A stretch of DNA of 64,000 bases, from the sequence record QB031382.1; one strand, given 5' to 3'. The notes below the pieces were generated by a model that had not been told where the DNA came from, searched no databases, and worked only from the letters and a program-made list of their open reading frames with translations. Of this stretch, positions 10,807 to 61,482 are shown piece by piece. The DNA comes from a phage. The position numbers and the translations under genes are program-made. Numbering within the stretch: the stretch's first letter is position 1; each line of letters begins with the position of its first letter.

Positions 10807-13800
10807 ATGCTTCCAATCCCTTTGCTAAAACTTGGTCGTCATTTCCTCGATAAGAGGGGTGGAATTAAGGAACTTGCTGTTCTGTCATACCCAATAGACA
10901 ACAGTGATGGCACAAGCACTACAGTACCCTATGTAAATAGCTTAGCTATACTTTTTGATGATGGTCAACTTAATATCACGGGCTATAACAGGTTCGGAGA
11001 GTGCCGTACTGGGGATCTTGACACGATAAACTATCCCAACGAGGCTGCCTGGAACGTTGATCATGTGTGGAGAGCAGACCGTGCGTTTGTAATCCGAACT
11101 TTTGATAATCAGTTTTTCTACATCGGCTGCACTGCAGGGCTTATTGGGTCTGATGCCGCAGGCGGTAATGATGTTTGTGTAAGAGAGTGGACACCTCTTC
11201 CTGAACAGATCGTTAAAGGGTTGCACCTTGACACCCACCCAGAGCGCCTTATTGAGGTGATGGGTGGTATTAACAACACTGTCTGGGTTATTGCAGAGGC
11301 AGAAGGCACTGGTATACTGAACCTGTACGGGTCTGGTAACAACACCTACGGATCTTTGCATGTAGATAAAAATCAGCATGCAACCCCTGTAAAGATCGGT
11401 GAGACATCGGAAAATCCTGAAACAGGCCCTTGGAAAAACCCAAGCATTAACTGCGAGGTGCATGACAACTCTGTTATTTTCGGCGGTCCTAGAGGTTTCT
11501 GGATTGCTGGATACGATTTTCTGAGAAACAACAGTAGAAACGACCTTGTTTGGCCTCCTGTGCAGATTACTCGTAACGATTTGAGGGGCATTCCTGCAGA
11601 TGAGGAGTGGAAAGGGTTTATGTGCGGTCCTAACGGGGCAATAATTGCCACGCAGAGGATGCACACACCCAATGACCAGCAGCTTGTTAACGTATTCTAC
11701 GGGCAAAACGTCTGGGGAGATGACACATGGCGTTCCTTAAATATCACCTACACCCATGAGGTGATAATGGCTCGTGGATACGGCACAAGTGGCATTTTCT
11801 TCAATAATGGCACTAAGCAGTATCGTGGATTCTCTCGCAACTTGTGTAATGATATTGGCGCACAATCTGCAAACAATAGCCCTAGGGCCAATTTTATCCA
11901 CTATCAAGCTCTTGCCACAGCCAAATACGTTGAGCAACGCCTCCCAGTTAGCTGGACAGAGAGTGTTTATTTCCAAGGCATCCACAGGGAAGGTTTCTTA
12001 GGAACCTTTACTGTTGTTAATGGTAAACTTTGGTGGTCAGGCATCCCAAGGGGAAATTTTGCAGGATCTAATAACCTGTTTGGCGGCAGACTTAATAGCC
12101 AAGGGTTCACAGAGGTCCCCGAGAATTGGTATAAAAATGTCCCAGTAGACAGTTGGGGTGTTGAGGATATTTTCGACGTTAACGGTGTTAGCAGCGTTAG
12201 CAATATTTACATTGGTGATACGGTCAAGATGAAATTGAAGCCTCAGCCAGAAGGGGCCACGTTCATTATTGACAAGATTGAACTGGTAAATGCTGCAGGT
12301 ACGGTTGTTACAGATGCAAATTACCAATTCTCTACCAACTGGAACCACGGCGGGGCCAACGAAGTTATTGTTACCCAGTATAACAGGAATGTTAACAGGC
12401 GTGGCCTGTACTCTGTAAAAATAACCTATCATGACAAACATGGCACAGGAAGAACCCACACAACAAGGAATTTGAACTGGAACACTATCGTCCCAGCGTA
12501 TCCGTCTGATGGTAAATGGCATACTGTAGGTAGAAACAAACAGTTCCATGTTAACGACACTGTATACTTTGGACTAAATGCGGCCCAGCCTGCAGTAGAA
12601 GGGGATACATCGTATATGGTCAGACTCCATAGAATGGATGCTGGATCAGTAACTTATGATGTTACCCAAGAGATTTATAATCAGCGACGAAATACCTATG
12701 ATAACTTGGTGCAGACACAGGCCCTATGGGAGTTCAACCCAAACGGAAGGGGTGGTAAAATGTTGCAGGTCAACGAACAAAACGGGACATCGTTGACTGT
12801 TCACGAACACCCAAACCCTTGGCCTGATCCTGGGAAACCGAATTCAGGTGCTCGTACACTAAAAATTGTCAGCCATGACGTAGGATATTTCGGAATACGT
12901 TGGGAAGCCACAGTAAGATATGCCGACGGGACAACAAACAATATTGGGATTACCCTTGGCGGCACCAGTGAGGATAACTCACTGAAAATTGCCTACACTC
13001 CTAGAGGTATTTCTATTGATAATATGGATGTTGTTCGCAATGGTTACGGCGATGTGAATGTCAAAGTTACTCTTGGCGAGCACCTTGGTGGGGAAAGGAT
13101 TATCATGTATGCTTTTGATCATGATCCGCGCACCAATGGAACTTATGCAAATCAGGCATGGAGTTACCTAATAAATGCACCTGAGCCGAATACTAAAGAG
13201 TTCTACTATGGTATGAAGCGAGATGTGTGCAAGAAAACAGGAACACATGACTGGATTGCTATCTGCGTTAAAGATGAGCGCACAGCTTGGGATGAGCCTG
13301 TTAACAGATGGTTCATAGGTATTCCTACCAGAAGTGATAAGTATGTCGCAGAGTATATTGTATGCATGGGCGGTACCAACCTGAACATGTGTTGGAACGA
13401 AGATGTAAACAAATACTCTACTTATGACTATATGAGGGATTATGCTTGTAATCTGTGGTTTAGCCAAACTACAGGTTACCCTCCGCGTCAGGCGAGAGTA
13501 AATCCTGCAATCTTCACAGATACGCAGGTTTTCTTGACAAAACAGGCTAACGAGGTTCAGACCTTTAAGAACAAATACGACCCTAACAAGTGGTTCTACA
13601 ACTGTTCCGGAGCAATATTCTGGGGACCTGCTGAACTGCCTGATACAGGTTCTTGCTTAGGGGCTGCAACCTATGGCAGTGACTATATTATGGGTCAGGT
13701 CAAGAAGTACAAGATAATTCCTGGACCTGCAATTCTAGGTAATGCTGTTGACCCGTACATAAATTTCGCAGCTATACATGCTAATATGGATGGAGGGAGA

Positions 13801-38403: not shown

Positions 38404-40827
38404 ATGAGCATGTGGTCGTTCGATTTTGAGTCATCCGGTTTGCTGGAAGACCCAGATCTTTATTATCACTGCGGTCTGTTTAAAGAGTTGAATAAGAACC
38501 GTTTTATGCTGTTCCTTCCTCTAAATGACCGCACACACTACTCCGAGGAGGATATAGAAAAGGCTAAGAACTTCATTCTGGCAAAGAAAACTCTTTATAA
38601 AGATTTTGAAGTTCGCATAGCAGATTTTTCGGAGTTGGAAGGTTGGCTTACAGGAAATTCTGACTGGTCACCAACAGCTTTGAACTGCCATAACTGCTAC
38701 AGTTATGACTTTATGCTGATGGAAAGATTATCCGGTATTCATTTTGATATGTTCCGTGATCCTAAATGCATGGGGACTATCAACGACCACCAGGTTAACC
38801 TGTTTGATACGTTGGCGATGAGCCGAATCTTATGGCCTGATCGCCCTTTACCAAAAGGTTGTCCTGACTCCGTATTCAACCCGGTTACTAAGAAAATGCA
38901 GCCTGTTGGTCCTCACGGCCTTATGGCATGGGGCTACGCCCTTGGTAACCAGAAAGTTCAAATTGATGACTGGCGCGATCTTCCGTTGTGGAAGTATGTG
39001 GATCGTGTATTCGAGGACGTTATCATCCAGGAGCTGCTCTGGAAAGAGCTGGTAGCGGAATCAAAAGGTGTATTCTACGGCAAATCTGACATGCAGAACT
39101 TTATGTACGATCCTGCCAAAGAGAAGCCGAAAGGGTTCAAGAAGATCACCTGGAAGAACGCATTGCGCCGGGGTATGCTGCAACACTTCCTGATGGAGCT
39201 GCAGGCCCGTCAGGGTGTGTATTTTGACATAGATGGGGCTATTGCTTTACGTGACCGTTGCGATGCGTGGATGAAAGAAATCGCTGATCGTGTTGAACCA
39301 CAACTACCTTTAAAAGAGCTGTCAATGTCTCAGCGGCCCAAGTTCCCTGAAAAGCCGTTTAACCAAGATGGGACAATCTCCAATAATGGTTGGAAATGGT
39401 TAAAAGATAAGCTTGGCTATCCTGTGGACATGAGCGCTTTAGAGTTCAAAGCCCCACCTAAGCGAGCATTTACCTCCACAGGGGATGTCAGTAAGATGGG
39501 GATAAAATGGTGTGAAGAGATGGGCTGTAAAGACCCTGATAAGATGGCTGATTTCTTGAGGGGCTATATTAAGGGCACTTCCACACCACAACCTTTACCT
39601 AAAGAGCTAATGGATCAGGCAATAAGTGATCTACAGCAGAAGCGAATGCCTGACTGCAAGATACCTATGAAAATCAGCAATCAGGACGACATTAAGCGAT
39701 ACCTGATTAGTGCTGGTTGGCTTCCGACAATGTGGAGAACTAAGGATGTAACTAAAGACAGCAAGAAGAAAGCTCTACCTGATGCAGATGTTGATGCACG
39801 AGTATATGCATATATGGACGAGCTTTTAGAGTCAGAGTATTGTGACCTGATTATCAACTTCTGGAACAAAACTGATGCTAAGTTCCAGACAACCGTGCAC
39901 AAGTTCCGAAGCTTTCCTAACTCCGAAAGGATTAAAAAGGAAGTATTCGGGAAAATACGTAGAAAAGCTAGGGCACTTATTACTTCTCCGCAACTGAAAG
40001 ATACGTTTGGACACCTATGCCCTAATCTTGAAAAATTGAACGGAGAGATGGCTAAAGATATCGTCTTGTGGTTATCATTGCGAAACCGCAGATCGGTACT
40101 TGATCCAATTAAGGAGGATAAGGTTGATACTGGTCTTCTTAATCACCCACGTTTGAAGATTGACCATAAGCTTCCTGCTAAAAGTTCTGGGTTAACAAAC
40201 ACTTCCCGACAGAAACACAGTATTTGTGCGAACATGCCTAAACCATCTCCTAAAGTGGTTATGGGTAAAGAGATGCGTAGTCTGTGGGGTGTTCCTCCGG
40301 GATACTTTGAGATCGGTATTGACGGGTCCAACTTAGAGCAGCTTATCGGGGCTTGGGGTGCCTTTGAGTTCGACAACGGCTTGTATTATGATGTTGTAAG
40401 TAACGGGGACGCACACCAAAACAATGCTGAGGCATATACAAAAGTAGCAGGCAGAGAGGTGTCTCGTAACGACGGTAAACCTATCACGTATGGGGTTATG
40501 TACGGGGCACAAAAAGATAAAGTTGCAGACATGCTGGATATCTCTCCAGAGTTGGGGCAAAGGGTAATCGATGCGCTTTGGGATGCCAACCCCGGTCTTA
40601 AGGGGCGTAAAGAGGATCTAGAGAAATTCTGGGAAGCAACAGGTAAGAAATTTATCTACTCTTTTGACGGTCATGCCATTTGGACCCGCTCTAAACACTC
40701 TTTGCTTAATGCATATCAGCAAAATGGCGGTGCCTCGTTGTGCGACTTGGTCGGAATCCTCATGCACCACCAAATGGTGAAGCGTGGATGGTATGATGAG
40801 GGTGTTCGTCGTATTATTTATTACCAT
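38404..40827 (+). CDS. DNA polymerase family A, exon 1 (3'-5' exonuclease, polymerase motifs A and B)
   Basis: Exo motif FDFESSGL; motif A IGIDGSNLEQLIGAW; motif B RNDGKPITYGVMYGAQ; tail aligns with T7 gp5 up to just before HDE; the in-frame stop at 40831-40833 is intronic. Confidence 0.8.
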
Positions 40828-41155
40828 AAATAACATTGTGGCTTCGTGCAGTGATGCACGTCGAAAACCTCTTTAATTGACGGGAAGGCTAAGTTGACTT
40901 TTACACCTAAACATGGTAAAAGCTCAATATGCTAATCCGCAGCGAAGCATCCGAGAGGATGAACGTTCAGAGACTATCGAAAGCATAGCTCCAACATAGT
41001 TTGGTGTGAAGAAGCGAGTAGAGTAGGCCAGCAAGTGCGGTCGAAATGAGAGGTGCCTTGGTAACAAGGCAGTGAGATAGTCCGATCCATACGGGAAACT
41101 GTATGGCTATGCACGTAATGGTGCGGGGTAGCTTAACGACCTACCTGAACTATTG
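40828..41155 (+). ncRNA. group I self-splicing intron (no internal ORF)
   Basis: Conserved P/Q/R/S elements in order: AATTGACGGGAAG (40875), AATCCGCAGC (40934), GTTCAGAGACTA (40965), GAGATAGTCC (41074); exon ends in U (40827) that can pair with GTGG guide at 40838; intron ends in G (41155); splicing gives YYH-DEYQLQV. Confidence 0.8.
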
Positions 41156-49184: not shown

Positions 49185-49784
49185 CAATCATTGCGCTGAT
49201 CATCTTGGTGGTGGTGTATGGATTTGTTATCCTGCCTATTCTTGAGACATTTAGTTTGTGTCGGTGTTGGAGAAAGGCTTACGGACCACAGCCGTGGAAA
49301 GACTGGCCTCATCTGTTACGCATAGCGTTCTCCTATGCCTATGATCACTCCAGCAGTGCATGCATAACTGGGTATCACGCCCACAACTGGAACTGGGAAG
49401 GGTTGGGGAGATGGAATGTTATAAAAACTATACCTCTACGCATGTACAAGCCTAAAAACAAAGATAGTTGATACTTGAAAATCCCTGGCACATCAAACAT
49501 AAGGAGGATTTCTAAAATGGATTTCCTCCTTTTGATATTTTACCTGGCCGGATATTTTAAAATTCTTAGAAAATCAGAAAATGGATCGAAAACTAAAATG
49601 GATTTTTTCAAGACAGGCACGATAAGCTGTGCTAATCATCCTATCGTTCGCACCGTACTTCAAATCACCGTTCCAGATTTTCCGCACACACTCTCACCCT
49701 TCTACCAGAACTTTCCCAACTTACCTTCGGCCTTTTATGACAATAAGTTAATTATTATCAGTAAGTTTTGATACATCTCTCTCA

Positions 49785-49975
49785 GTACTCGATCTGTTTT
49801 TCATTTCAAAGATTGGATTTTCTGAAAATTTTTCTCGATAAATTTTTCGGTACTCGATCTGTTTTTCGTTTTCTGAATCGGATTTTCTTGAAATTGGTCC
49901 AGCACCAGATCTAAAATTTTTGGGAACGAAAGCGATTTTTCGTTTTCAGAAATGGATTTTTAAAATTTCTATATG
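49785..49975. repeat. AT-rich tandem direct repeats (about 64 bp, two full copies plus a partial)
   Basis: GTACTCGATCTGTTTTTC(A/G)TTT... at 49785 and 49849, partial third copy near 49930. Confidence 0.5.
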
Positions 49976-50082
49976 GGAATATTTTATGAGGTATTATTTT
50001 ATATAGAATTGTCACGGTAGGTAATTAGCATGCTAACTAAATTTATGAAATGCGAAAAGTTCTCATTTAGAATTTTGAATGA

Positions 50083-50135
50083 TAATCATTCTCGTTTGCA
50101 GAATAACGGGCACCCCCGGTGATTGTCTCCCGGCC
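50083..50135 (+). repeat. GC-rich repeat element, copy A
   Basis: 50103-50131 ATAACGGGCACCCCCGGTGATTGTCTCCC is the exact reverse complement of 58211-58239. Confidence 0.6.
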
Positions 50136-50218
50136 CCTACTGCCCCGGCTTGCTATTATAGTATCACACAGGACAAAGAAAGCAAGGAGTTTTTGCATAA
50201 ATTTTTAGACGATAATGA

Positions 50219-50280
50219 TAATCGTTCTCATTTCATGCAGCGCCCATCCCCGGTGGTTGTCTCCCCCGTCACCGGTGCCT
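50219..50280 (+). repeat. GC-rich repeat element, copy C (direct, degenerate)
   Basis: GATAATCGTTCTC...CCCCGGTGGTTGTCTCCCCCGTCACCGGTGCC, about 85 percent identical to copy A and to the inverted copy B. Confidence 0.5.
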
Positions 50281-50640
50281 GCCGTCCTTTCGATATGTAT
50301 ATTGTGCCACCTGGCGGGGCCGCTGTCAACACTTTTCAAAAATTTTTTTCTAACCTGATGCACTAACCGCTGCAACCTGGCGGGGCCAGCCTGGCAGGAC
50401 CTAACTGACCAGGTGGGCCTATGCTATAGGATAGGTAACAATTGAAGAGGAGGTACAAAAAATGGAAGGTAATATGATCCCCTGGAAAATGTAGCTATTA
50501 ATGACGCTGAGGCTATCGCCCTGGTTGAAAAGGCTATGGCGGGAGCGTTGGAACATAAAGAAGAGTACGAAAAAATTATGGTTAACCTGGCAGGGTCGGC
50601 GGCTGAGGAATTTTGCCCAAAAAATAATTTTAACTAGTGG

Positions 50641-50669
50641 TTGACAGCTCGGACAGTTTTTGCTATTCT
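50641..50669 (+). promoter_or_regulatory. sigma70-like promoter
   Basis: -35 TTGACA, 17-bp spacer, -10 TATTCT. Confidence 0.45.
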
Positions 50670-50721
50670 TATCCTCGCAAGGTGAACAACACCACACTAA
50701 TTAACAGAGAGGATAAAAATC

Positions 50722-50919
50722 ATGAACGCCTACGGAATCAAAGTACGTCGCAACACTCGCCAGGTGGTCACCAATCAAGTGATTTGCCGGGCGGATGTAA
50801 CCATCAACAACGGGCAAGGCCTTTATAAATTTCGTCGCGGTCATAGTTATACCCTGCAACAGCTTAATCGTTGCGCCCTGACAAAAGGCCAGATCAACCA
50901 CTGGTTTAATAAAAAATAA
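50722..50919 (+). CDS. small hypothetical protein
   Basis: 65 aa, RBS GAGAGGA. Confidence 0.45.
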   Translation: MNAYGIKVRRNTRQVVTNQVICRADVTINNGQGLYKFRRGHSYTLQQLNRCALTKGQINHWFNKK

Positions 50920-50922
50920 GTA

Positions 50923-50951
50923 TTGACATATAGCCTGACACAAAATACACT
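50923..50951 (+). promoter_or_regulatory. sigma70-like promoter
   Basis: -35 TTGACA, 17-bp spacer, -10 TACACT. Confidence 0.45.
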
Positions 50952-50983
50952 AAAAGCACAAAAGACACTAAGAGGATAAAATC

Positions 50984-51382
50984 ATGAAAACCACTACCTT
51001 TAATTTTGACAATGCGGACTTTTCTTTTTCTGATGTCAAGAACTGCCGCCGTGATCGTGGATTTTATAAGGCTTATAATCTGGTGGGCCTGGACGATGAC
51101 AATAATTTGCACGAAGTAGCTGAGATCCGGTATTATGCCGCCGCCAGTGGGAACACTCACTACTGCGTTTTTTGGATACACGACAACAAGAACAATAAGT
51201 ACGGCTATACTGGCGGCAAGGCGAGCGGTCACGGTTATGATAAAGCTAACGCAGCACTTGAGAGCGCATTAAATGCTATGGGGATCACTGCCGACGGCTG
51301 GATCTACGAAGAAGAGTTTTTGTCGGCACTTGCTGACCGCCTGGGATATAAAAAGCACATTGTAACATGTGCCCACGAATAA
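50984..51382 (+). CDS. small hypothetical protein
   Basis: 132 aa, RBS AAGAGGA. Confidence 0.5.
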   Translation: MKTTTFNFDNADFSFSDVKNCRRDRGFYKAYNLVGLDDDNNLHEVAEIRYYAAASGNTHYCVFWIHDNKNNKYGYTGGKASGHGYDKANAALESALNAMGITADGWIYEEEFLSALADRLGYKKHIVTCAHE

Positions 51383-51393
51383 AAAAAAAATTA

Positions 51394-51421
51394 TTGACAC
51401 GCTGCAAAATTCAAGTAAACT
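51394..51421 (+). promoter_or_regulatory. sigma70-like promoter with 5' leader hairpin
   Basis: -35 TTGACA, 16-bp spacer, -10 TAAACT; leader hairpin GGCGGGAA-TGT-TTCCCGCC. Confidence 0.45.
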
Positions 51422-51469
51422 AGACACAAAAGGCGGGAATGTTTCCCGCCAACACAAAGGAAAAAGATC

Positions 51470-51874
51470 ATGAATAAGAACGTACGCCGCATCATGAACG
51501 AGTTGGCAAACGATGAAAAAATTATTGACATGCATTTGATCAACATTTGCCGCCGTTGTGTAACATATAACAACCGCGCCGCAAAAGCGCGTGAGATGAA
51601 CGCAAAAGGCACCTTAAAGCCATTCCAGGTGGTGGTAAAGGCCATTAAAAATGTAACTAATACGGCAAACCAGGTACAGGGGAACACCAACGAGAGTACC
51701 AATATTGATCCGGCTTACATCATGAAACGGATCCGGACCTGTAAGAACAAAGAGCAAGTGTATAATGTTATAGACTGGTTGGATTCTATGGGCGACGTGG
51801 TGTACAATAGATTCTCGGCAGCTATTGAGATCCAGCTTGACAGGTTGGACGGTAAAGTACTGAAAACTTATTAA
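51470..51874 (+). CDS. small hypothetical protein
   Basis: 134 aa. Confidence 0.5.
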   Translation: MNKNVRRIMNELANDEKIIDMHLINICRRCVTYNNRAAKAREMNAKGTLKPFQVVVKAIKNVTNTANQVQGNTNESTNIDPAYIMKRIRTCKNKEQVYNVIDWLDSMGDVVYNRFSAAIEIQLDRLDGKVLKTY

Positions 51875-51875
51875 G

Positions 51876-51921
51876 TTTATTTTTAGATGGCCTTGACTCC
51901 AGGGCCATCAATAAAGTAAAC
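51876..51921 (+). promoter_or_regulatory. conserved palindromic intergenic element, copy 1
   Basis: TTTATTTTTAGATGGCCTTGACTCCAGGGCCATCAATAAAGTAAAC; 7-bp stem GATGGCC/GGCCATC with TTGAC in loop; T-rich upstream, A-rich downstream. Confidence 0.4.
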
Positions 51922-51954
51922 TAGTCTCAACTAAGCGAAAAAGGGGGCTTTAAG

Positions 51955-52074
51955 ATGAGCACTACACGCCAATACACAAAGGTAACTATTATCGTTTGCG
52001 TTGTCGGTTACATCCTGGCGCAAATGTTAATGAGTAGCGCCAACAGTTTTGCAAAATTTTTCTTAAATTTTTAA
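51955..52074 (+). CDS. small hydrophobic peptide (39 aa, below ORF-track cutoff)
   Basis: ATG after RBS AAAGGGGG; sequence MSTTRQYTKVTIIVCVVGYILAQMLMSSANSFAKFFLNF. Confidence 0.3.
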   Translation: MSTTRQYTKVTIIVCVVGYILAQMLMSSANSFAKFFLNF

Positions 52075-52102
52075 TTGACAAGCTAACCCAAATCAGTATA
52101 CT
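52075..52102 (+). promoter_or_regulatory. sigma70-like promoter with leader hairpin
   Basis: -35 TTGACA, 16-bp spacer, -10 TATACT; hairpin GGGAA-AAC-TTCCC. Confidence 0.5.
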
Positions 52103-52153
52103 TAAACACGTAAACGGGAAAACTTCCCAGAACACACAAAAGGAGAAAACACC

Positions 52154-52495
52154 ATGACTACTATGACCGCCGCAGAAAAAGCTATGCAGATCGCCGCGCT
52201 GAAAAAACAGATCGCAGACCTTGAGAACAAGATCGATAACTTTGAAATCGACGAGGACAAGTACGACGAAAACTATAATGAATGGCTAGACGAGATCCAC
52301 GGCGAAATTATGATCGGTAACATTTCTTTTCTTCCGTCGCGTATCCTCAAGGAGTTAGATCCTATCGCTTACCGCTGCGGATTTAGCGACTACATCGACA
52401 GCCTGGGCATTGAGGACGACGAAGACTATCAAGAATTGCAGACAGAGTTGGAAGAAATGAAAGAGGAGCTTTCAAAGCTGGAAGAAAACGAGTAA
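52154..52495 (+). CDS. small acidic hypothetical protein
   Basis: 113 aa, RBS AAGGAGA. Confidence 0.5.
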   Translation: MTTMTAAEKAMQIAALKKQIADLENKIDNFEIDEDKYDENYNEWLDEIHGEIMIGNISFLPSRILKELDPIAYRCGFSDYIDSLGIEDDEDYQELQTELEEMKEELSKLEENE

Positions 52496-52497
52496 AA

Positions 52498-52543
52498 TTT
52501 ATTTTTAGATGGCCTTGACCCCAGGGCCATCAATAAAGTAAAC
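52498..52543 (+). promoter_or_regulatory. conserved palindromic intergenic element, copy 2
   Basis: TTTATTTTTAGATGGCCTTGACCCCAGGGCCATCAATAAAGTAAAC. Confidence 0.4.
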
Positions 52544-52581
52544 TTTACACTGTTACACTGAACTAATGAGGAGTTAAAACT

Positions 52582-52827
52582 ATGGCAGCACTAATCACAA
52601 AATATTATGCGCCCACCAACACCAAAAGCGCCCGTATCATGGTAAAAGGTTTCGGACGTAAAAAGGTCTACACCTGGGACTATTCCCTAGATATGGAAGA
52701 CAATTATACCAACGTAATGACTGATTTTATTAATGATCTGAATAAACAGATCCTAACCGACTACAAAGTGACCGATATTGTTTACATAGGTGAAGGCGGG
52801 ATCTGTTTTGTAGGCATTGTGAAATAG
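52582..52827 (+). CDS. small hypothetical protein
   Basis: 81 aa, RBS GAGGAG. Confidence 0.45.
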   Translation: MAALITKYYAPTNTKSARIMVKGFGRKKVYTWDYSLDMEDNYTNVMTDFINDLNKQILTDYKVTDIVYIGEGGICFVGIVK

Positions 52828-52875
52828 TTATTTTTTCGGTGGTCCTGGTTGCAGGGGCCATCTATAAAGATAATT
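52828..52875 (+). promoter_or_regulatory. conserved palindromic intergenic element, variant copy
   Basis: TTTTTTCGGTGGTCCTGGTTGCAGGGGCCATCTATAAAGATAAT; shares GGGCCATC(A/T)ATAAAG core. Confidence 0.3.
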
Positions 52876-52903
52876 TATTAACACCATGAAAGGAGAAAGT
52901 AAC

Positions 52904-53257
52904 ATGATCAGCGGGGCCAGTTTTATTATCGGCGCTATTGCTACGGCTTTAATTGTAAACAAGATCCAGGATAAAAAGGAAAGAGGAAGTACCGCCCTTG
53001 CAGAATATCCATTTTGGACATTCAACGATAACGAAGATTATATTATAAAGTATAAAAATAAAGAAGGCGACCAAGTAACACCGCGACCGATCCCGGCTTA
53101 CAAAATGCAGGAAACACTATACCGCCTTGAGGCGGGCGGCGCAAAAATTGTTGACTTTTGGGGATACGACCACACAGATCAGGAAGTTATAAAGCGCCGT
53201 ATCCGGGCTATTCAGGCCAATATTGAGGTTAGCAAGAGGGGAATATATGAAAATTAA
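52904..53257 (+). CDS. small membrane-anchored hypothetical protein
   Basis: ATG after RBS AAAGGAGAAAG; N-terminal hydrophobic helix ISGASFIIGAIATALIV. Confidence 0.45.
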   Translation: MISGASFIIGAIATALIVNKIQDKKERGSTALAEYPFWTFNDNEDYIIKYKNKEGDQVTPRPIPAYKMQETLYRLEAGGAKIVDFWGYDHTDQEVIKRRIRAIQANIEVSKRGIYEN

Positions 53258-53444
53258 TTTCGAGAAAATTGTAAAGCGCCCTCATGATTCCGAAGAGTTG
53301 CCAGAACGCCGCCAGCGCAACAATAAGCTGAATAAGCCAAAAAGGTTTGGGAAGATCTGGCGTAATCATTATGATCGTAAATTGCCCGGCCTACTTTTGG
53401 AACGTGAACGACAGGCAGAACGCTACCGCCATAAAGACAAATAA
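53247..53444 (+). CDS. small basic hypothetical protein
   Basis: ATG after RBS AAGAGGGG; 65 aa. Confidence 0.35.
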   Translation: MKINFEKIVKRPHDSEELPERRQRNNKLNKPKRFGKIWRNHYDRKLPGLLLERERQAERYRHKDK

Positions 53445-53452
53445 CAACCAAC

Positions 53453-53480
53453 GCCCCGCCATTGTGCGGGGCTTTTTATT
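53453..53480 (+). terminator. rho-independent terminator
   Basis: Stem GCCCCGC ... GCGGGGC followed by TTTTTATTTC. Confidence 0.6.
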
Positions 53481-53601
53481 TCTATCCTACGAATAGCGCC
53501 CCTGGTTGGCCCTGTAAGCGCCAAAAAGGCCCCCACCTATGCAATCGCCCCTTTAACCTGAAAACATCGCCCAGGGCCGTCCTATGGCGTTAAAAATATC
53601 A

Positions 53602-53629
53602 TTGACATCGTCAACAGGTTAGCTATACT
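53602..53629 (+). promoter_or_regulatory. sigma70-like promoter
   Basis: -35 TTGACA, 16-bp spacer, -10 TATACT. Confidence 0.5.
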
Positions 53630-53661
53630 AACCACATCAAAGAGAGAAAGGAGTAAACGCC

Positions 53662-53922
53662 ATGCGTAAATTAAAAAATTTTGATAAAGTTGATGTTATC
53701 CTGAATAATTTTTACTACTGCAACAATAAAGCTATCTGGTGGCGGGATAGTTCCACCGATAAAGTCAAAGCGCGCTTTCTTCAAGGGCACTGGCAAGGCC
53801 GCCCAGTGATTAAAATCATGGGGCAATTGGTAGCGTTTAAAAATTGCCGCCGCGTTGATGACGTTGAGGAGATTTTAAACATTTTGCGCCACAATAATTT
53901 AAAAAATAGTGTTGACAAGTAG
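53662..53922 (+). CDS. small hypothetical protein
   Basis: 86 aa, RBS AAAGGAG. Confidence 0.45.
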   Translation: MRKLKNFDKVDVILNNFYYCNNKAIWWRDSSTDKVKARFLQGHWQGRPVIKIMGQLVAFKNCRRVDDVEEILNILRHNNLKNSVDK

Positions 53923-53939
53923 ATCTCAATAAGTATAAT
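53912..53939 (+). promoter_or_regulatory. sigma70 consensus promoter with leader hairpin
   Basis: -35 TTGACA inside end of upstream ORF, 16-bp spacer, -10 TATAAT; hairpin GGCGGGAA-AAC-TTCCCGCC. Confidence 0.55.
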
Positions 53940-53996
53940 TAAACACACAGGCGGGAAAACTTCCCGCCACTAACAAAGAAAACAGGAGAAAATATC

Positions 53997-54620
53997 ATGA
54001 CCACCGTTAACATTACCACAGGTTACAATTTATCTTTCGACGTGCTGACCGACGAACAAAAAGAAAAAGCCATTGAAATGGTCCGCGAAAGAGAAGAACG
54101 TAGCGGGGACGATTTTTTCGCAGAAAATGTAATTGAATACTATAAAGAACAAGTTTTTCCAGAGTACGGCCTTGAGGATACCGAAGTACATTGGTCCGGC
54201 TTTTGGTGTCAAGGCGATGGCGCATCGATCAGTGCTGAAAATGTAGACTTAGAAAAATTCTTGCGTAAAGTCAAGGCCCTGACCAAGTTCAGATCAATTC
54301 GTCACTTGTTCGGCACAATGCACGATGGCGAACTATCCGCCAGTGTTGAACGCGACAAGTACAGCCATTACAGCCATGAAAACACTATAAGCGGGTACAT
54401 TGATACCACTTGGATAGATCTGACCGCCAAACAAGAAAACAAAGTGGAAGACCTGGAAGAATTGATCACCGAGACGGTACGGGAGCTATCCCGCAAGGTT
54501 TACGTAGACCTTGAGGAGGCCTATCTAGAACAGTTCACCGCAGAAAACCTGATCGGCCTTATTCAGGCCAATGATTGGCGGTTTGATGTCGATGAATATG
54601 GTGAGATGACTTTTTCATAA
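53997..54620 (+). CDS. hypothetical acidic protein
   Basis: 207 aa, RBS CAGGAGAAAA. Confidence 0.5.
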   Translation: MTTVNITTGYNLSFDVLTDEQKEKAIEMVREREERSGDDFFAENVIEYYKEQVFPEYGLEDTEVHWSGFWCQGDGASISAENVDLEKFLRKVKALTKFRSIRHLFGTMHDGELSASVERDKYSHYSHENTISGYIDTTWIDLTAKQENKVEDLEELITETVRELSRKVYVDLEEAYLEQFTAENLIGLIQANDWRFDVDEYGEMTFS

Positions 54621-54628
54621 ATAAAGTG

Positions 54629-54656
54629 TTGCAATAACCTAAAAACCTGCTATATT
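54629..54656 (+). promoter_or_regulatory. sigma70-like promoter with leader hairpin
   Basis: -35 TTGCAA, 16-bp spacer, -10 TATATT; hairpin GGGCAA-GACAT-TTGCCC. Confidence 0.45.
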
Positions 54657-54713
54657 AAAACTCAAGGGGGGCAAGACATTTGCCCGCCAACACAAAACAA
54701 AGAGGATAACATC

Positions 54714-55094
54714 ATGAAAAATACTACTAAGGCTATTGACACCGTTATGTTTAACCTGGTTACACTCCGTGAAGATATGAAAGATCTTCCGCGTGAAACA
54801 GTGTGCGACCATATCGAAAACTATCGCAAACTAATCAAAGAGTTGCCATTAAAACGAGATCAGTACGCGGCTAACGCTATGCTAAACGCCATGATCAAAA
54901 AGATGATCCAGTGTGATCTAACCCTGGCCTATGATTATGCAGGCGGTCGTTTTGCAGTATACAATCAGCCCGTGCCTGGTATGAGCACCACCGAAGAATT
55001 GCACGCGCTCAATCTAAAACAGGACGTGTGGGATAGTATGCCTCGCGTGGTGGTATGGGTAGAAAGCGGGAAGATTTACGGCGATAATTTTTAA
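54714..55094 (+). CDS. small hypothetical protein
   Basis: 126 aa, RBS AAGAGGA. Confidence 0.5.
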   Translation: MKNTTKAIDTVMFNLVTLREDMKDLPRETVCDHIENYRKLIKELPLKRDQYAANAMLNAMIKKMIQCDLTLAYDYAGGRFAVYNQPVPGMSTTEELHALNLKQDVWDSMPRVVVWVESGKIYGDNF

Positions 55095-55103
55095 TCAGGT
55101 AGC

Positions 55104-55131
55104 AGGCGGCATAATTGCCGCCTTATTGTTG
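55104..55131 (+). terminator. rho-independent terminator
   Basis: Stem AGGCGGCA-TAAT-TGCCGCCT then TATTGTTG. Confidence 0.45.
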
Positions 55132-55158
55132 ATCAGAACTGCAAAAGGGGTACATAGA

Positions 55159-55530
55159 ATGGAATTTATTATTTTGGCCGTATTGGTTGCCTTATTTAAC
55201 GCCTGGATCGCTGGCAAGATGGGAAGATCCGCCTTTTTATGGTTTATTATATCTATTTTCCTGGGGGTGGTTGCAACTATTGTACTGGTTATCCTTGCAA
55301 TTGTTGACAAGGGGAATAATAGAAAGGGTAAAGTATTTTCAGACCTGTACGACGCTCAAACGTTTGTCAACGCCTATTACAGCGATCTTCCAGTCTCCCT
55401 ACGTTGCAGCCTTGCACAACAGGTTTTTGATGAGGCTAAAACCAGAGATCACGCCCATGAGATTTGTTTAACTGAGGCGGATCGCTTATTTGAGAGGAAT
55501 AGAAAATATGTGGGCCAGCCGTTTAAATAA
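55159..55530 (+). CDS. small membrane protein
   Basis: ATG after RBS AAAGGGG; two hydrophobic helices. Confidence 0.45.
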   Translation: MEFIILAVLVALFNAWIAGKMGRSAFLWFIISIFLGVVATIVLVILAIVDKGNNRKGKVFSDLYDAQTFVNAYYSDLPVSLRCSLAQQVFDEAKTRDHAHEICLTEADRLFERNRKYVGQPFK

Positions 55531-55729
55531 TACCACGTTAATTAATCCATTTAGTGAAGATTTGAGGCCAGCCGCCTGGCGGAATGGATTCAATAACGAA
55601 AAATTTACTTTTAGGCCTGATCTTGAGGAATTTTATAACAATGGATCGAACAACGACAGAAATAATTTTTCTCGTAATGTGCGTGGCGATAATACTCCTG
55701 GGGGCCATTGTAAACCACGTCACTGCTAA
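55508..55729 (+). CDS. small hypothetical protein
   Basis: ATG after RBS GAGGAA, overlaps upstream gene end; Asn-rich. Confidence 0.3.
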   Translation: MWASRLNNTTLINPFSEDLRPAAWRNGFNNEKFTFRPDLEEFYNNGSNNDRNNFSRNVRGDNTPGGHCKPRHC

Positions 55730-55749
55730 CAGGAGGAAAGGGGGAGACG

Positions 55750-55869
55750 ATGACAACCAAGGATAAGCCCAGCACCGACAAGGCGCGCCGCGTTATGGTA
55801 TGGCTTGAGATTATCGCCCTTGAAATATTGTTAGGCGTAGGGATGTATTTTATCGCCGTACGTACCTGA
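55750..55869 (+). CDS. small hydrophobic peptide (39 aa, below ORF-track cutoff)
   Basis: ATG after strong RBS AGGAGGAAAGGGGGAG; C-terminal hydrophobic helix; terminator follows. Confidence 0.3.
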   Translation: MTTKDKPSTDKARRVMVWLEIIALEILLGVGMYFIAVRT

Positions 55870-55873
55870 TAAC

Positions 55874-55905
55874 GGCCCCCGATCCCTGGGGGCCTGACTT
55901 TTTTC
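55874..55905 (+). terminator. rho-independent terminator
   Basis: Stem GGCCCCC-GATCCCT-GGGGGCC then TGACTTTTTTC. Confidence 0.6.
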
Positions 55906-55933
55906 AAAAAAAAAAATTTTTTCTTCCGGGGTG

Positions 55934-55961
55934 TTGCAATCCGGTCCGGAATATGGATAAT
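55934..55961 (+). promoter_or_regulatory. sigma70-like promoter with leader hairpin
   Basis: -35 TTGCAA, 16-bp spacer, -10 GATAAT; hairpin GGGGAG-ACA-CTCCCC. Confidence 0.45.
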
Positions 55962-56020
55962 AACAATCAACGGGGAGACACTCCCCACCACACAGACAAA
56001 GTTCCAAAAGGAGAAACAAA

Positions 56021-56221
56021 ATGAGCAACAATATCCGCGTTATTAACTTCAAAAAAGAAGAAAAAATAGCTGTGCTGGTTGATGGTCAAGAAATATTCAA
56101 GGGGTATTACGAAGATCATCAGGCGGCGATCAGTATTACCCGCGTAATTGGTTACCATAATTTTTACCCTCAAGGCGCTGAGGCAGCAGTAAAACGAATT
56201 AAGGAGATTGTAGGCCTGTAA
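56021..56221 (+). CDS. small hypothetical protein
   Basis: 66 aa, RBS AAGGAGAAA. Confidence 0.5.
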   Translation: MSNNIRVINFKKEEKIAVLVDGQEIFKGYYEDHQAAISITRVIGYHNFYPQGAEAAVKRIKEIVGL

Positions 56222-56223
56222 AA

Positions 56224-56270
56224 TTTATTTTTAGATGGCCTTGACCCCAGGGCCATCAAATAAAGTAAAT
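56224..56270 (+). promoter_or_regulatory. conserved palindromic intergenic element, copy 3
   Basis: TTTATTTTTAGATGGCCTTGACCCCAGGGCCATCAAATAAAGTAAAT. Confidence 0.4.
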
Positions 56271-56313
56271 TTAAAACCTGTTAAAATAATCAGTGCAAAA
56301 AGGAGAAATGATC

Positions 56314-56613
56314 ATGTTTATACCCGCCAATGATCTTTATTTCTTTGATGGTCAGATCGTAGACGGCGTGGAAGTTGAGATCGCTGGATGTAAAGGCGGC
56401 CAGGTAATGATCTTCCGCAATAGTGCCTTTAACGATCATTTTATTACAATGACTGTGGAAGTTAAAAAGCTGGATGATAAGAAAACACTCATTGACTATT
56501 CCGTGAAAGATCATCCAGACTACCACATGATCTATGGTGATTTGTGCATTGTTGACCGTGACAAGGTGGGCGGCATTGTGATCGCTATTGTGAACGATGT
56601 TTTCTCTGAATAA
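56314..56613 (+). CDS. small hypothetical protein
   Basis: ATG after RBS AAAGGAGAAA. Confidence 0.45.
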   Translation: MFIPANDLYFFDGQIVDGVEVEIAGCKGGQVMIFRNSAFNDHFITMTVEVKKLDDKKTLIDYSVKDHPDYHMIYGDLCIVDRDKVGGIVIAIVNDVFSE

Positions 56614-56672
56614 TTCCGGCAAATGATGCAAAATAAGGCCCATGGCAGGGCCTGCAGCGATATAATCACACA

Positions 56673-56704
56673 AAGGCTATGCAGTTGCATGGCCTTTTTA
56701 TTTT
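56673..56704 (+). terminator. rho-independent terminator
   Basis: Imperfect stem GGCTATGCA...TGCATGGCC then TTTTTATTTT. Confidence 0.45.
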
Positions 56705-56751
56705 AGCGCTACAGCGGCCCCCAAGGCGTTTAAAAAATTTTTAAAAAGTAC

Positions 56752-56779
56752 TTGCATCAAGTCCGACAATATGGATAAT
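56752..56779 (+). promoter_or_regulatory. sigma70-like promoter
   Basis: -35 TTGCAT, 16-bp spacer, -10 GATAAT; G/C hairpin in leader. Confidence 0.4.
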
Positions 56780-56838
56780 AGGACTTATCAGGGGGGGGCG
56801 GCCCCCAATCATTAACCGGATAGATGGGAGTTAAAATC

Positions 56839-57123
56839 ATGGCTATTGTTACCGTGGGCGATGTAGTAGAAATGGAAGCAAAATACTTAAAAGCGGGTAT
56901 GCATATCCTACGCAACGATCTTGAACTAGTCCTGACAATGGTCGACTATAATCCCGGTCAGGATTATCCAAGCATCGACTACTTTTTCCAGTATGTTGAC
57001 GAAGAATTAAAAGAAGATGACGCTTATCGTGGTGAATTTTGCAATTTCTTTTGCCCTGATGAGGTTGTAAAAGTTATCTATCAACCTGGCGTACCTTTCC
57101 CGTTGCACGCCATCAATAAATAA
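56839..57123 (+). CDS. small hypothetical protein
   Basis: Second ATG chosen (RBS GGGAG); 94 aa. Confidence 0.45.
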   Translation: MAIVTVGDVVEMEAKYLKAGMHILRNDLELVLTMVDYNPGQDYPSIDYFFQYVDEELKEDDAYRGEFCNFFCPDEVVKVIYQPGVPFPLHAINK

Positions 57124-58195
57124 GCCTGGCGGGGCCGAAAAAGGCCCCTCCTGAAACTATGAAAAAATAAAGATAGGTGAATCATCATGATGGAACAAAT
57201 TAAACGCGCTGAGGCTATTAATGGCAATGATGCCGCCAACATGACAGAATGAAAAACATCATTTACAGATTGACAAAACGCAACATCATGATCGCCACCG
57301 TGATCGCTTGCCTTTTCGCTTTCGTGAGTAACGCAACGTTTAACGCCGTGGGCCGGGTGGTGTTTAATGCTGGCAGTGTTTCAACAGCTAACACAATAAT
57401 CGATTGTTTGCAACTTTTCTTTTATGTTGCCTTTCGTTTAAAAATAGCTTGCAAGGTAGACCGTTTTGATTTACCTTTTATTTGTGGCGGCGTGATCGCT
57501 ATCGTATGCTAACAGAGGATCAGAAGAAAAGTGTACGACATAGGGCGGGGCAATAAGGCAACGCCCATTAATGAGGGTGGAATCATGTTAGAAAAAATTT
57601 TCACGGTTGTAGTAGTTGGCATGGCATTATCGGTTGGAGTGGTTGCAACTATGGCTAACATGATCCTATCTTCCCACGGTATCGGGTAAGGTGAAACAAA
57701 TGATCACGAACAAAACAGGAAAAACGGAATTTTTACGCGGCTTGCAAATAGGTAAGCCTGAGATCTGGTATTGCACTAAAACACCACGTGACGAAATGAA
57801 AGATTTTACCGCCACGCTGAAGCGGGTAAAGATATCTATCACGCAGAAAAAGCCTTGATAGTGGTGGAAGGTGAGATCCCTCAAGCCGTTGTTATAGTTG
57901 AGCGTACAGCATAGTTTAATCTATACCGTACGCCCCATTAACTAACAAAGCATAAGCAGGCGGCGGTGACCGCCTTGAACGCAACAGAAAGAGAATAGAA
58001 AAGCATGAGAAAGGTAATTATCACCATAGGGATCGTGGCGGCAATGTTGGCGATCTTTCCCTTTATGGTTAGGTATGTGCTGATCAGTATTGTCCTGATA
58101 GTCAGTGGTCTATTGGAAACGGTTGGCAACTGGTTTTAAGATAATAAACAGGGCTTGCAATGGTCCTGTTTTTTGTTATACTTATCTCACGGGTG

Positions 58196-58239
58196 GCACC
58201 TGGCGACGGGGGGAGACAATCACCGGGGGTGCCCGTTAT
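58196..58239 (-). repeat. GC-rich repeat element, copy B (inverted)
   Basis: Reverse complement of 58211-58239 equals 50103-50131 exactly; lies just upstream of promoter at 58259. Confidence 0.6.
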
Positions 58240-58258
58240 ATAAAAACTATAAAAACAG

Positions 58259-59583: not shown

Positions 59584-59760
59584 AAGGCAACTATGCAAAC
59601 GAATGTCATGGCGCGACGGAGTCGCGACATAATATAAAAGCAGTAACCATCACCCCCGTGATAGTTTATCTGCAAACTATTGATCAGATCATAGTTGCCT
59701 TAGATTTAGTTAATCATGACATAATAAGCAAGGCAACTATAGATCTGATAATAGTTGCCC
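59584..59760. repeat. cluster of four AGGCAACTAT motifs in alternating orientation
   Basis: AAGGCAACTAT at 59584(+), 59691(-), 59730(+), 59751(-); last pair forms 10-bp inverted repeat with 10-bp spacer; 19-bp direct repeat ATGCAAACGAATGTCATGG at 59595 and 59852. Confidence 0.55.
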
Positions 59761-59790
59761 TGCTTTTATATTATGTCATATATTATTAAC

Positions 59791-59850
59791 CTGTTAATTG
59801 TCAGCTTATTGGCTGTTAGCTTGTCAATTGTTAACTTGTTAATTGTTATC
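59791..59850. repeat. four tandem about 15-bp repeats (TTGTYAATTGTYARC)
   Basis: tgttaattgtcagc / ttattggctgttagc / ttgtcaattgttaac / ttgttaattgttatc. Confidence 0.5.
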
Positions 59851-59878: not shown

Positions 59879-59986
59879 TTTGTGTAAACTGTCAGGGTGT
59901 AGACTATTCAAGGTGTAAATTATTCAGATGCAAACTATCCAGGCGTAAACAGTCTATGCGGGAACAATCTGCACGTGAACAATGAA
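59879..59986. repeat. six to seven degenerate tandem about 16-bp repeats (iteron-like)
   Basis: gtgtaaactgtcagg / gtgtagactattcaag / gtgtaaattattcaga / tgcaaactatccaggc / gtaaacagtctatgcg / ggaacaatctgcacgt. Confidence 0.5.
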
Positions 59987-61482
59987 ACATGAAATAATAA
60001 CAGTCGTTATTGTATCGAAAGTGTATAAGGTGTCAGATTATGGCATATTGTGTGACATTGTGTCAGACAAGTTTTTCTCCTCTTTGTCAAGTGCTGCATG
60101 TAAAATTTACAAACTGGTATGGTAGCATTTTTGCGGCCCTGTTTACATTCAGGAGTGTATGTATAACCCTTGTTGTGTGGGCGTTTAGACGTCTGGACGG
60201 TCAGAAGTCTGCAGGTTAATATCTAATCTATTGGTCGCTAACTATATCCCCACAAATAATAAGAAATGCAATTGTTATATGCGTAAACAGTAACTCATGT
60301 TATCAATCCCTGTATGTATCGCCAGTGGTGCGCATAATGGGTATTATGTTAAATTGCCCGTAATGATAACGATTCTCACAATGATAGGTATTCTCATTCA
60401 CCCGCCCAGGATAGGTTGCAAATGTTGTGCCACTGTGTGAACGGCCTCGCCTATTAATTTGCCTCACTGCCCCGATATTTGAGAATTATTATAAGAATGA
60501 GAAGTATTCCCATTTCGTCCGCCTGGCAGCACTCCTGTAGGACAAGCACAAAATCGTGGCATAACTGTACCTGTTCAGATATTTCTGGCTGACTCTTCAG
60601 GTCTGTGTGGGAAAAGCCAACCTCTCCGGCGGCGGGGAGTGGGTCAATTAAAAAATTTACGTGGTGTATGAAGCGCTCTTCAGGTAAGGCAGGTATTATG
60701 GGATGAATCACTCTTCAGGTGATGATATTTGTAGGTGTGATATTTGCTGGAAAGCCAGATATGACGGGACTCCCGGCGGGGCAGGGGTAGTACAGACAGG
60801 GAAAATGTGGAGAATGTGGTGGGTAAATTGATCAAGCAGGTAGAGTATGGAATATGTTACAGGTATGTTAAATATGGAGGTAAGATATTTGTAAGATTTG
60901 TGTGTAAAATCAAAGACTTAAGTAGTGTTGTGGTATTTTCTATAAATAATTCAAGTTTAATAGGGAATATTTGCCTCTATCCACTTTGTATGGTAACTAT
61001 ATTCTAATTGAATTGGTTTACAAGTGTATATAAAGTATACAAATTAAAGATACAAGAAACCCCCCTCCCCCTTCGGCTACCATTCACCTTTTCCTCTGAC
61101 TGGTACTTAAACACTTATTCAGACTCTTCAGGTTATCACTCATATATCATATGGCAGTGACTGGTGTCCTCCGGCCCCTCTTTCGTCACCCGTCCGCTTC
61201 GCCATGCTAATGCCATAGCTAACTGTTCGGTTGTTCACCCTGTTCACTCAGGTGTATCTCCATACCCCTTCAAACCGAAGAGAACAGAAAACCCGAATTA
61301 CTCGGTAAAAGAAAAGAGAAGAACTTAATTTTATCAGGATAGGCAAGAATGTCAAGGCATGACTGCTCACTAAACAAGCAAACAGTCATGTGTGGGAGGT
61401 AAGTGATTGTGGTGGTAGGAAATTTAGTTGAAAGATGTGTTATAGGTGCTTCCAGCACTTTAGCCTGGCAGCTAATTGTGTG

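Follow-up and report, generated by a model that had tools for sequence, protein, structure and literature searches.

The primary replication origin of phage T7 consists of the tandem promoters phi1.1A and phi1.1B with an AT-rich region, and the T4 origins oriF and oriG combine a promoter with a downstream unwinding element. The nutL and nutR sites of lambda, like putL and putR of HK022, are promoter-proximal RNA elements whose copies are inverted because the promoters diverge. Here we compare with these and other systems a GC-rich repeat in a 64,000-nucleotide stretch of phage DNA (sequence record QB031382.1; "the window" below is this whole stretch), which has two neighboring copies, A and B, at 50.1-50.3 kb and an inverted one, C, at 58.2 kb. 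The element is an undescribed conserved promoter-proximal non-coding module of an ordinary kind, and our account of it, to which we give a probability of about 0.55, is that A, B, and C are paralogous copies of one small, self-contained, promoter-linked non-coding unit.

As at the T7 and T4 origins, one or two tandem promoters are predicted to fire into AT-rich, repeat-bearing non-coding DNA near replication genes, giving non-coding transcripts with a G-rich start. In this case, however, the promoters are of the host sigma70 type and not phage-polymerase or MotA promoters, the module has palindromic boxes and iterons of ~65 nucleotides (nt), copy C is not beside iterons, and an origin is recognized by its anatomy only. 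The nut and put sites are matched in that short related sequences occur just past promoters, form inverted repeats around a gene block, and take their orientation from the promoter; unlike those systems, the locus has no leftward genes, its boxA-like stretch and two-hairpin structure are not conserved, and there is no Rfam match. The T4 promoter-early stem-loop (PeSL) cassettes are stem-loop plus early promoter units between small early genes, and this arrangement recurs here, with the -35 of copy C in a terminator loop and breakpoints adjacent, but the conserved GC-rich core is extra, there are only three copies, and A and B point against the genes. With the Hin, Gin, and Cin segments the locus shares a short inverted repeat at the ends of a segment of a few kb; unlike these segments (or Pin) it has no detected recombinase, a single orientation in relatives, no dyad-symmetric crossover site, and no conserved identity between the repeats. 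Lastly, Fur-repressed promoters of Enterobacteria carry a 19-bp box overlapping the -35/-10 region. The palindromes at this locus match the Fur consensus and overlap the spacer or -10 of candidate rightward promoters, but the phage version AATGAGAATNATTCTCATT has one changed position per half-site, and its 1-5 copies at 29-nt spacing would look more like initiator iterons.

The 9.3 kb around the repeat match 251 phage records, the best being Escherichia phages VB-EcoM-WM (96.7%) and FV3 (96.1%). The window is from an rV5-like myovirus (Vequintavirus), with the repeat in the early small-gene region. In annotated relatives every gene is on the plus strand from the DNA polymerase (~38-41 kb in the window) to past 59 kb, and in the early region almost all genes have a promoter of their own, of the TTGACA type, and many also a terminator. 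The replication genes (PIF1 helicase, DnaB-like primase-helicase, and DNA polymerase) lie at 31-47 kb and the repeat region comes directly after them; copies A and B occupy the largest intergenic region of the stretch, at 49.77-50.46 kb. The copies of the core, and those of a 12-mer, CCTGGCGGGGCC, are as follows.

50103-50131, minus strand: core copy A, reading GGGAGACAATCACCGGGGGTGCCCGTTAT on that strand
50242-50265, minus strand: core copy B, degenerate, reading GGGGGAGACAACCACCGGGGATGGGC on that strand
58211-58239, plus strand: core copy C, reading GGGAGACAATCACCGGGGGTGCCCGTTAT
50310-50321 and 50376-50387, plus strand: two copies of CCTGGCGGGGCC, in the leader that separates copy B from the first gene downstream
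57125-57136, plus strand: third copy of CCTGGCGGGGCC, overlapping the 5' arm of a hairpin (GGGGCC-GAAAAA-GGCCCC) that comes directly after a stop codon

The repeat had been noticed in an earlier reading of the window (the original prediction), and its inverted pair stands: ATAACGGGCACCCCCGGTGATTGTCTCCC at 50103-50131 (plus strand) is the exact reverse complement of 58211-58239, a perfect 29-nt match with the arms 8079 nt apart. None of 100 dinucleotide shuffles gave such a match, even with up to 3 mismatches. The 18-mer CCCCGGTGRTTGTCTCCC is found exactly at 50114, at 50248, and on the minus strand at 58211 (0.10 expected), and a core profile made from 20 homologues picks out three sites, no more, in the whole 64 kb (E = 4e-11, 2e-10, and 1e-5; next best 4.4). 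A degenerate direct copy, also predicted, does exist, but its earlier limits (50246-50280) were slightly off, the profile and the core both giving 50242-50265. This copy has 4 mismatches to the 24-nt core and the same orientation as copy A, and the similarity between A and B extends leftward into a common palindrome (TGATAATCATTCTCGTTT / TGATAATCGTTCTCATTT). The recurring short motif is likewise real as the 12-mer CCTGGCGGGGCC, which occurs exactly three times (0.18 expected), at 50310, 50376, and 57125; the positions given before were each off by one. The 12-mer is kept at homologous places in six other Vequintavirus-type loci searched, of which one, the metagenomic contig L005, covers the first two positions only.

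The evidence that ties the copies together comes from their promoters. We collected 25 instances from about two dozen phages, spanning eight genera and two unclassified or mislabelled records, and oriented them so that the core reads GGAGACAAWCACCGG. They represent Vequintavirus (the window, WM, EdH4, JES2013, V18, and phita32, which is unclassified in its record), Certrevirus (phiTE, CR8, F5M1E, POP17), Seunavirus (GAP31, 4MG, LNA4, GEC_vB_MG), Phapecoctavirus (phiWec181, phAPEC8, ZCKP1), Justusliebigvirus (KKP_3264, cardinal), Mydovirus, Henunavirus, the unclassified Serratia phage Kashira, and Salmonella phage vB_Sen_SG_WM_SEW_6S, whose record is labelled Demerecviridae. All 25 have a sigma70-like promoter upstream on the same strand, with TTG at -35, TAnnnT at -10, and a spacer of 16-18 nt; from the end of the -10 to GGAGACAA the distance is 24-29 nt (for the B type, 36 nt). 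Promoter matches average 8.6/12 versus 6.2 for random windows, and a score of at least 9 is reached in 64% versus 4.4%. (For two Vequintavirus A copies the scan chose CTTTCT as the -35; TTGCTT lies 3 nt further upstream.) At the C-type copies the same scan found no consistent promoter in the opposite orientation. Spacer sequences vary among genera while the hexamers and the spacing are retained, as expected of working promoters. Because it lies at a fixed distance downstream of a promoter, the conserved motif GGAGACAAWCACCGG...GCCCGYTAT would fall at about +18 to +50 of a short, G-rich predicted transcript. The orientation of the copies is explained in the same way: copy C appears inverted because its promoter fires rightward and those of A and B leftward. 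As judged by sequence comparison, what has been conserved is the primary sequence and its set distance from the promoter. The predicted promoters in the window are these.

50155-50185, minus strand: promoter of copy A, TTGCTT (50185-50180)-19-TATAAT (50160-50155) or TTGCTT-16-TACTAT, with a predicted start at ~50148; the scan's top match is CTTTCT-16-TATAAT (8/12), and the TTGCTT -35 is our own reading
50301-50329, minus strand: promoter of copy B, TTGACA-17-CACAAT with a TG extension (10/12), with a predicted start at ~50294
58155-58182, plus strand: promoter of copy C, TTGCAA-16-TATACT with TG, with a predicted start at ~58189

Homologues of the copy A promoter in other genera are stronger (TTGCAA-17-TATATT). 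The first CCTGGCGGGGCC (50310-50321) sits inside the spacer of the copy B promoter.

The element is found in all rV5-like (Vequintavirinae) and phi92/phAPEC8-like (Stephanstirmvirinae) phages sampled. The non-coding stretches that contain it are conserved in 201 (A/B) and 212 (C) phage records, other genera included, and the neighboring genes differ. Only a short motif is invariant across genera, RA.A.AAWCACCRG plus GCCYGY.AT (~10-15 nt), and its flanks change freely. Certrevirus, Seunavirus, Mydovirus, Henunavirus, Phapecoctavirus, and the Serratia phage all preserve the succession of iterons, palindromes spaced at 29 nt, core, and promoter, and in CR8 an inverted C-type copy, followed by a palindrome, lies 10.6 kb away. 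Copies A and C carry the same allele in the window and WM (GGGT/GGGT) and in EdH4, JES2013, and phita32 (GCCT/GCCT); V18 has GCCT at A and GGGT at C. Mismatches between A and C number 4 in V18 and 5 in 24 in CR8, and in phAPEC8-type phages ~12 nt are common to the two. Strict concerted evolution of A and C was considered and rejected, as it is broken in V18 and CR8.

Genera other than Vequintavirus have a second leftward unit to the right of the A-type unit, in which an A/T tract (UP-element) and a TTGACR-17-TATAMT promoter are followed by a highly conserved stretch of ~110 nt, ACAGGAGAGGAGACGCCACCCCACGGCGAAAAGGCGGGGCUAACGUACCGGG...GGAAGGUGGAUCGCCGGUAGUUCGUCC, with a core-like GGAGAC..CACC. 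Identity is 75% per alignment column over six genera, and a hairpin in it has two compensatory pairs. A profile search shows the ~110-nt unit to be absent from the Vequintavirus window, and it has no Rfam match. Its location in CR8 is given here.

12130-12250 of the CR8 locus (L009), leftward: the ~110-nt unit; homologous stretches are in L004, L008, L010, L011, and L013-L017

This second unit indicates that tandem leftward non-coding units are the rule and ancestral, the Vequintavirus pair being B + A. In phiTE (L004 2776-3207), phiWec181 (L016 1179-1445), and Kashira (L011 2279-2545) a small minus-strand gene with the motif LMxALGWQGGTVHQVAxxTGL stands beside the non-coding region and is the only leftward gene there. 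As an adjacent regulator gene this was a candidate that we set aside: a helix-turn-helix had been guessed for it, but it matches no Pfam domain and has no homologue in the window, and its neighbors are without assigned function.

On its upstream side copy C adjoins the following feature.

58146-58171, plus strand: the upstream gene's terminator hairpin, with the -35 of the copy C promoter in its loop

The same design, a -35 within a terminator loop, is found in all 11 C-type units. Copy C has the same direction as the genes. What follows a C-type copy differs from phage to phage, the downstream genes being unrelated, so C is not a leader belonging to any one gene. One or two palindromes come after the C-type core in CR8, POP17, and the Salmonella phage. 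In the window, copy C is followed by two genes and a terminator and then by a 2.1-kb region free of open reading frames (ORFs), 58.97-61.1 kb, which is apparently the "non-coding" box of the rV5 map and holds three further Fur-box-like palindromes (60361-60375, 60379-60393, and 60495-60509). That region also has 15-16-nt tandem repeats at 59814-59848 and 59882-59950 and, at 59680-59765, the inverted repeats GGCAACTAT/ATAGTTGCC around GATC sites; the numbering of several deposited genomes begins within it. Breakpoints in gene content and alignment among Vequintaviruses cluster beside copy C, at 57.23-58.15 kb and at 58.945 kb. The C-type unit of phita32 (L025 21076-21150) is a mosaic in which the terminator/promoter and the 5' half are Certrevirus/phAPEC8-like and the 3' half is of EdH4 type; as the junction falls in the conserved core, the core may serve as a crossover point between divergent phages. 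Terminators with the -35 of the next promoter in their loop (e.g. GATGGCCTTGACCCCAGGGCCATC) occur at 51862-51922, 52484-52544, 56210-56270, and 58146-58182, and such terminator-promoter units resemble the PeSL cassettes of T4.

Copies A and B are tandem units read leftward, against every flanking gene. To their left come first a palindrome resembling a Fur box, then AT-rich DNA that includes a hairpin, and last the three iteron-like repeats.

50077-50091, adjoining copy A: Fur-box-like palindrome GAATGATAATCATTC, matching the central 13 nt of the Fur consensus exactly
50211-50229, adjoining copy B: Fur-box-like site GATAATGATAATCGTTCTC, 17/19 to the E. coli Fur consensus (0.02 expected)
49775-49960, downstream of A and B in the direction of reading: three iteron-like tandem repeats of ~65 nt, GGTACTCGATCTGTTTTTCGTTTTCTGAATCGGATTTT, each with a GATC, in the AT-rich stretch

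Against the 19-bp E. coli Fur consensus GATAATGATAATCATTATC the palindromes at A and B score 15/19 and 17/19, and the box of phage 4MG scores 16/19. The phage palindrome consensus is the above-mentioned AATGAGAATNATTCTCATT, which other genera have in arrays. Two candidate rightward promoters are associated with the palindromes. The palindrome at 50077-50091 lies in the spacer of TTGAAT (50075-50080)-18-CAGAAT (50099-50104), which is convergent with the promoter of A and whose layout is retained in nearly all A-type loci; that at 50211-50229 overlaps the -10 of TTGCAT (50193-50198)-18-GATAAT (50217-50222). Both come from our own reading of the sequence and are a weaker point (~8/12); they would be convergent with the leftward promoters of A and B. 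The palindromes could be host Fur sites or sites for an initiator or operator. GC content is 0.29 at 49.8-50.1 kb, and CR8, phiTE, and Kashira have repeats homologous to the iteron-like ones; in other genera these carry a CTCGATC core and T-tracts. Iteron-like repeats in AT-rich DNA make the region a candidate replication origin: with the leftward promoters at 50.16 and 50.30-50.33 kb and the replication genes nearby, the anatomy of one is present, and the candidacy is a matter of anatomy alone. On the rightward side of the non-coding region, the first reading frame is a 10-codon ORF, MEGNMIPWKM, at 50463-50495, preceded by a perfect Shine-Dalgarno sequence, GAGGAGG.

Searches for the identity of the element covered RNA families, bacterial genomes, and viral metagenomes. 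With the Rfam 15 covariance models the sole match in the window is a group I intron, and at E <=10 only chance matches of microRNA type overlap the region. (The intron, RF00028, 75.6 bits, at 40818-41105, lies at the end of ORF 38404-40833, whose position corresponds to the gene annotated as DNA polymerase in relatives.) No counterpart of the element was found in 5426 E. coli genomes, and in 185,579 species genomes the 18-mer has only 7 scattered matches, with 0 in enterobacterial records; host-derived sequence, or a target in the host, was rejected on these grounds. Scanning IMG/VR with a 22-mer retrieved only three contigs, from the same phage groups. A Klebsiella phage record has tRNA-Met/tRNA-Ile annotations in this region, but ARAGORN finds nothing there or in the window and tRNA features are lacking, which disposes of a tRNA or tRNA remnant; the tRNA-Ile of one record is a spurious annotation over a homologue of the ~110-nt unit. 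Protein coding was discarded because ORFs over the element (e.g. 50079-50366) have no ribosome-binding site and are made of the repeats themselves, and a conserved reading frame is ruled out by the substitution pattern and by a 2-nt indel in the core (GAP31 type). A gene-specific leader or riboswitch fails because C-type copies precede unrelated genes in different phages. A G-quadruplex was dismissed because copy A only has four G-tracts and the pattern is not conserved. By-eye comparison with textbook consensus sequences gave no sigma54 promoter and no CRP, DnaA, IHF, or LexA site conserved across instances, and a sigma70-dependent pause element (-10-like GACAAT), compared in the same way, is also not conserved across them. 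As for a boxA/nut element, CGCUAUUC (6/8 to boxA) is present in some genera only, with GUCAUUC in others, and the hairpins are not conserved.

Are A, B, and C, then, the ends of a movable segment? In one explanation of the original prediction they are recombination sites for a cassette of 8.1 kb that can invert or move; this is now largely refuted, and we consider it very improbable. An inverted repeat at both ends, which invertible DNA needs, is present. However, the alignments of five related genomes to 49.0-59.5 kb all lie on a single strand, the opposite one contributing 0 nt, and among the matches listed (of 201 for A/B and 212 for C) every Vequintavirus-type row crosses A/B and C into both flanks in the parental order (rows H31-H65 for the A/B query, starting at query position 1-2, and H91-H123 for C), so that no inverted isoform is seen. 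Orientation is conserved even in a different genus, Certrevirus phage CR8 having the same layout, with a plus and a minus copy 10.6 kb apart and all genes between them on the plus strand. No recombinase domain was detected in the 20 ORFs of at least 170 amino acids in the window (64 kb of ~137 kb) or in the neighboring small proteins, and the rV5 genome paper mentions no integrase, recombinase, or invertase (PMC3606486). The repeat lacks dyad symmetry, its identity is lineage-specific and falls to ~12 nt in related subfamilies, and the third copy is direct. That only rightward small genes lie between the arms fits the annotation of relatives, but genes beyond the arms are rightward too, and the repeat does not therefore bracket a distinct transcription block. 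Another reading, which we think unlikely, makes the copies homology patches of a shuffling, PeSL-like terminator-promoter cassette, with the core as crossover point and the 29-nt identity as recent gene conversion. The recurring terminator-loop design, the breakpoints beside copy C, and the mosaic junction in the core of phita32 all favor it; it leaves unexplained why the motif stays at a fixed distance from the promoter across two subfamilies, and why A and B face away from the genes with palindromes and iterons downstream.

The binding of a regulator was also proposed for the repeat, and a core that is a DNA site for a phage or host protein such as a regulator or replication initiator, for example a roadblock or loading site shortly past particular promoters, strikes us as a minority possibility; which way the site faces in the genome would then not matter. 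That across genera a short primary-sequence motif is invariant and its flanks free, that RNA covariation was not found, and that palindromic operator-like boxes and iteron-like repeats accompany the element would all suit such a site; but the motif is not palindromic, its polarity and distance to the promoter are constant, no candidate binding protein is conserved beside it, and a pure DNA site has no need of a strand bias. Such a bias is seen in the direction of reading: G outnumbers C in 20 of the 25 instances (mean skew +0.14), and in the predicted helices of two alignments G-U cells number 25 versus 4 A-C cells, two strand-specific signs that favor the transcribed sense. A further alternative is that a rightward C RNA pairs with a rightward leader crossing A/B, downstream of the Fur-box promoters, and controls it, in the manner of the P4 CI RNA with seqA/seqC or of the P1 c4 RNA. 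The arrangement of A/B (+) and C (-) does give the perfect 29-nt complement in the window, and most Vequintavirus genomes have one allele at A and C. We nonetheless find this trans-antisense pair improbable: the complementarity is lost in V18, CR8, and the phAPEC8-type phages, and A and B have promoters of their own that make RNA of the same sense as C, which a mere target would not need.

Several results weigh against paralogous promoter-linked non-coding units. The promoters are known from consensus matches only, and copy A has the poorest one among them (8/12, or a 19-nt spacer); our search of the literature found no transcriptome of these phages. None of the three copies in the window is followed by an intrinsic terminator, so a discrete small RNA is not evident, and the predicted leftward transcripts of A and B have no obvious product and run antisense into upstream genes. 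For structured RNA, the third suggestion of the original prediction, the signs are mixed. The elements do come shortly after promoters, and single sequences have folding energies of about -20 kcal/mol (range -12 to -26, about equal on both strands); conservation of a structure with covariation was not detected. Hardly any pairing is left in the consensus folds, at -2.9 kcal/mol with 6 pairs and 0 compensatory changes for the C type and -0.3 kcal/mol with 2 compensatory pairs for the A/B type. Most A-type copies share an outer helix, AUAGCGGG / CCCGCUAU, in which 82% of cells pair versus 27-50% with a slid partner, yet its covariation is no higher than that of shuffles (183/500), and pairing between the 5' and 3' flanks is no stronger for cognate than for non-cognate combinations (-9.9 vs -10.7 kcal/mol). 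An origin role is weakened for copy C, which in the window does not adjoin iterons, two genes lying between it and the next non-coding region.

If A, B, and C are such units, host RNA polymerase would start at their promoters early in infection, and the resulting non-coding transcripts would act locally at non-coding control regions. In an origin role these transcripts would activate or prime replication, with one or more promoters, a G-rich start, an AT-rich unwinding region, and iterons as its parts. Origin-associated transcription is the specific role that we prefer, tentatively. The rV5 paper located no origin, and the skew analysis in it tracks the direction of transcription only (PMC3606486). 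A trans-acting small RNA with the conserved motif as its recognition sequence seems doubtful, and control of the Fur-box promoters beside A and B, by antisense or convergent transcription, a little more so. In broader terms, it is conceivable, if speculative, that Vequintavirinae and Stephanstirmvirinae share an undescribed non-coding control hub, which could be the origin at which rV5-like phages begin replication, set off by transcription and perhaps controlled by host Fur and hence by iron status, with C as a second entry point. Its content might be, with equal reserve, tandem non-coding RNAs driven by host promoters (the core family and the ~110-nt RNA) that fire against the genes into Fur-box-like operators and iterons.

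These results remove the false lead of an invertible gene cassette. They also bear on annotation, as most pipelines put spurious ORFs, and even "tRNAs", over this region, and rV5-like and phi92-like phages are widely used candidates for therapy and biocontrol. For the biology of these phages, the element sits in a possible replication or regulatory hub, and the module with its Fur-like boxes and iterons offers concrete, testable coordinates for mapping where early non-coding transcripts and replication start and whether host iron may be sensed.

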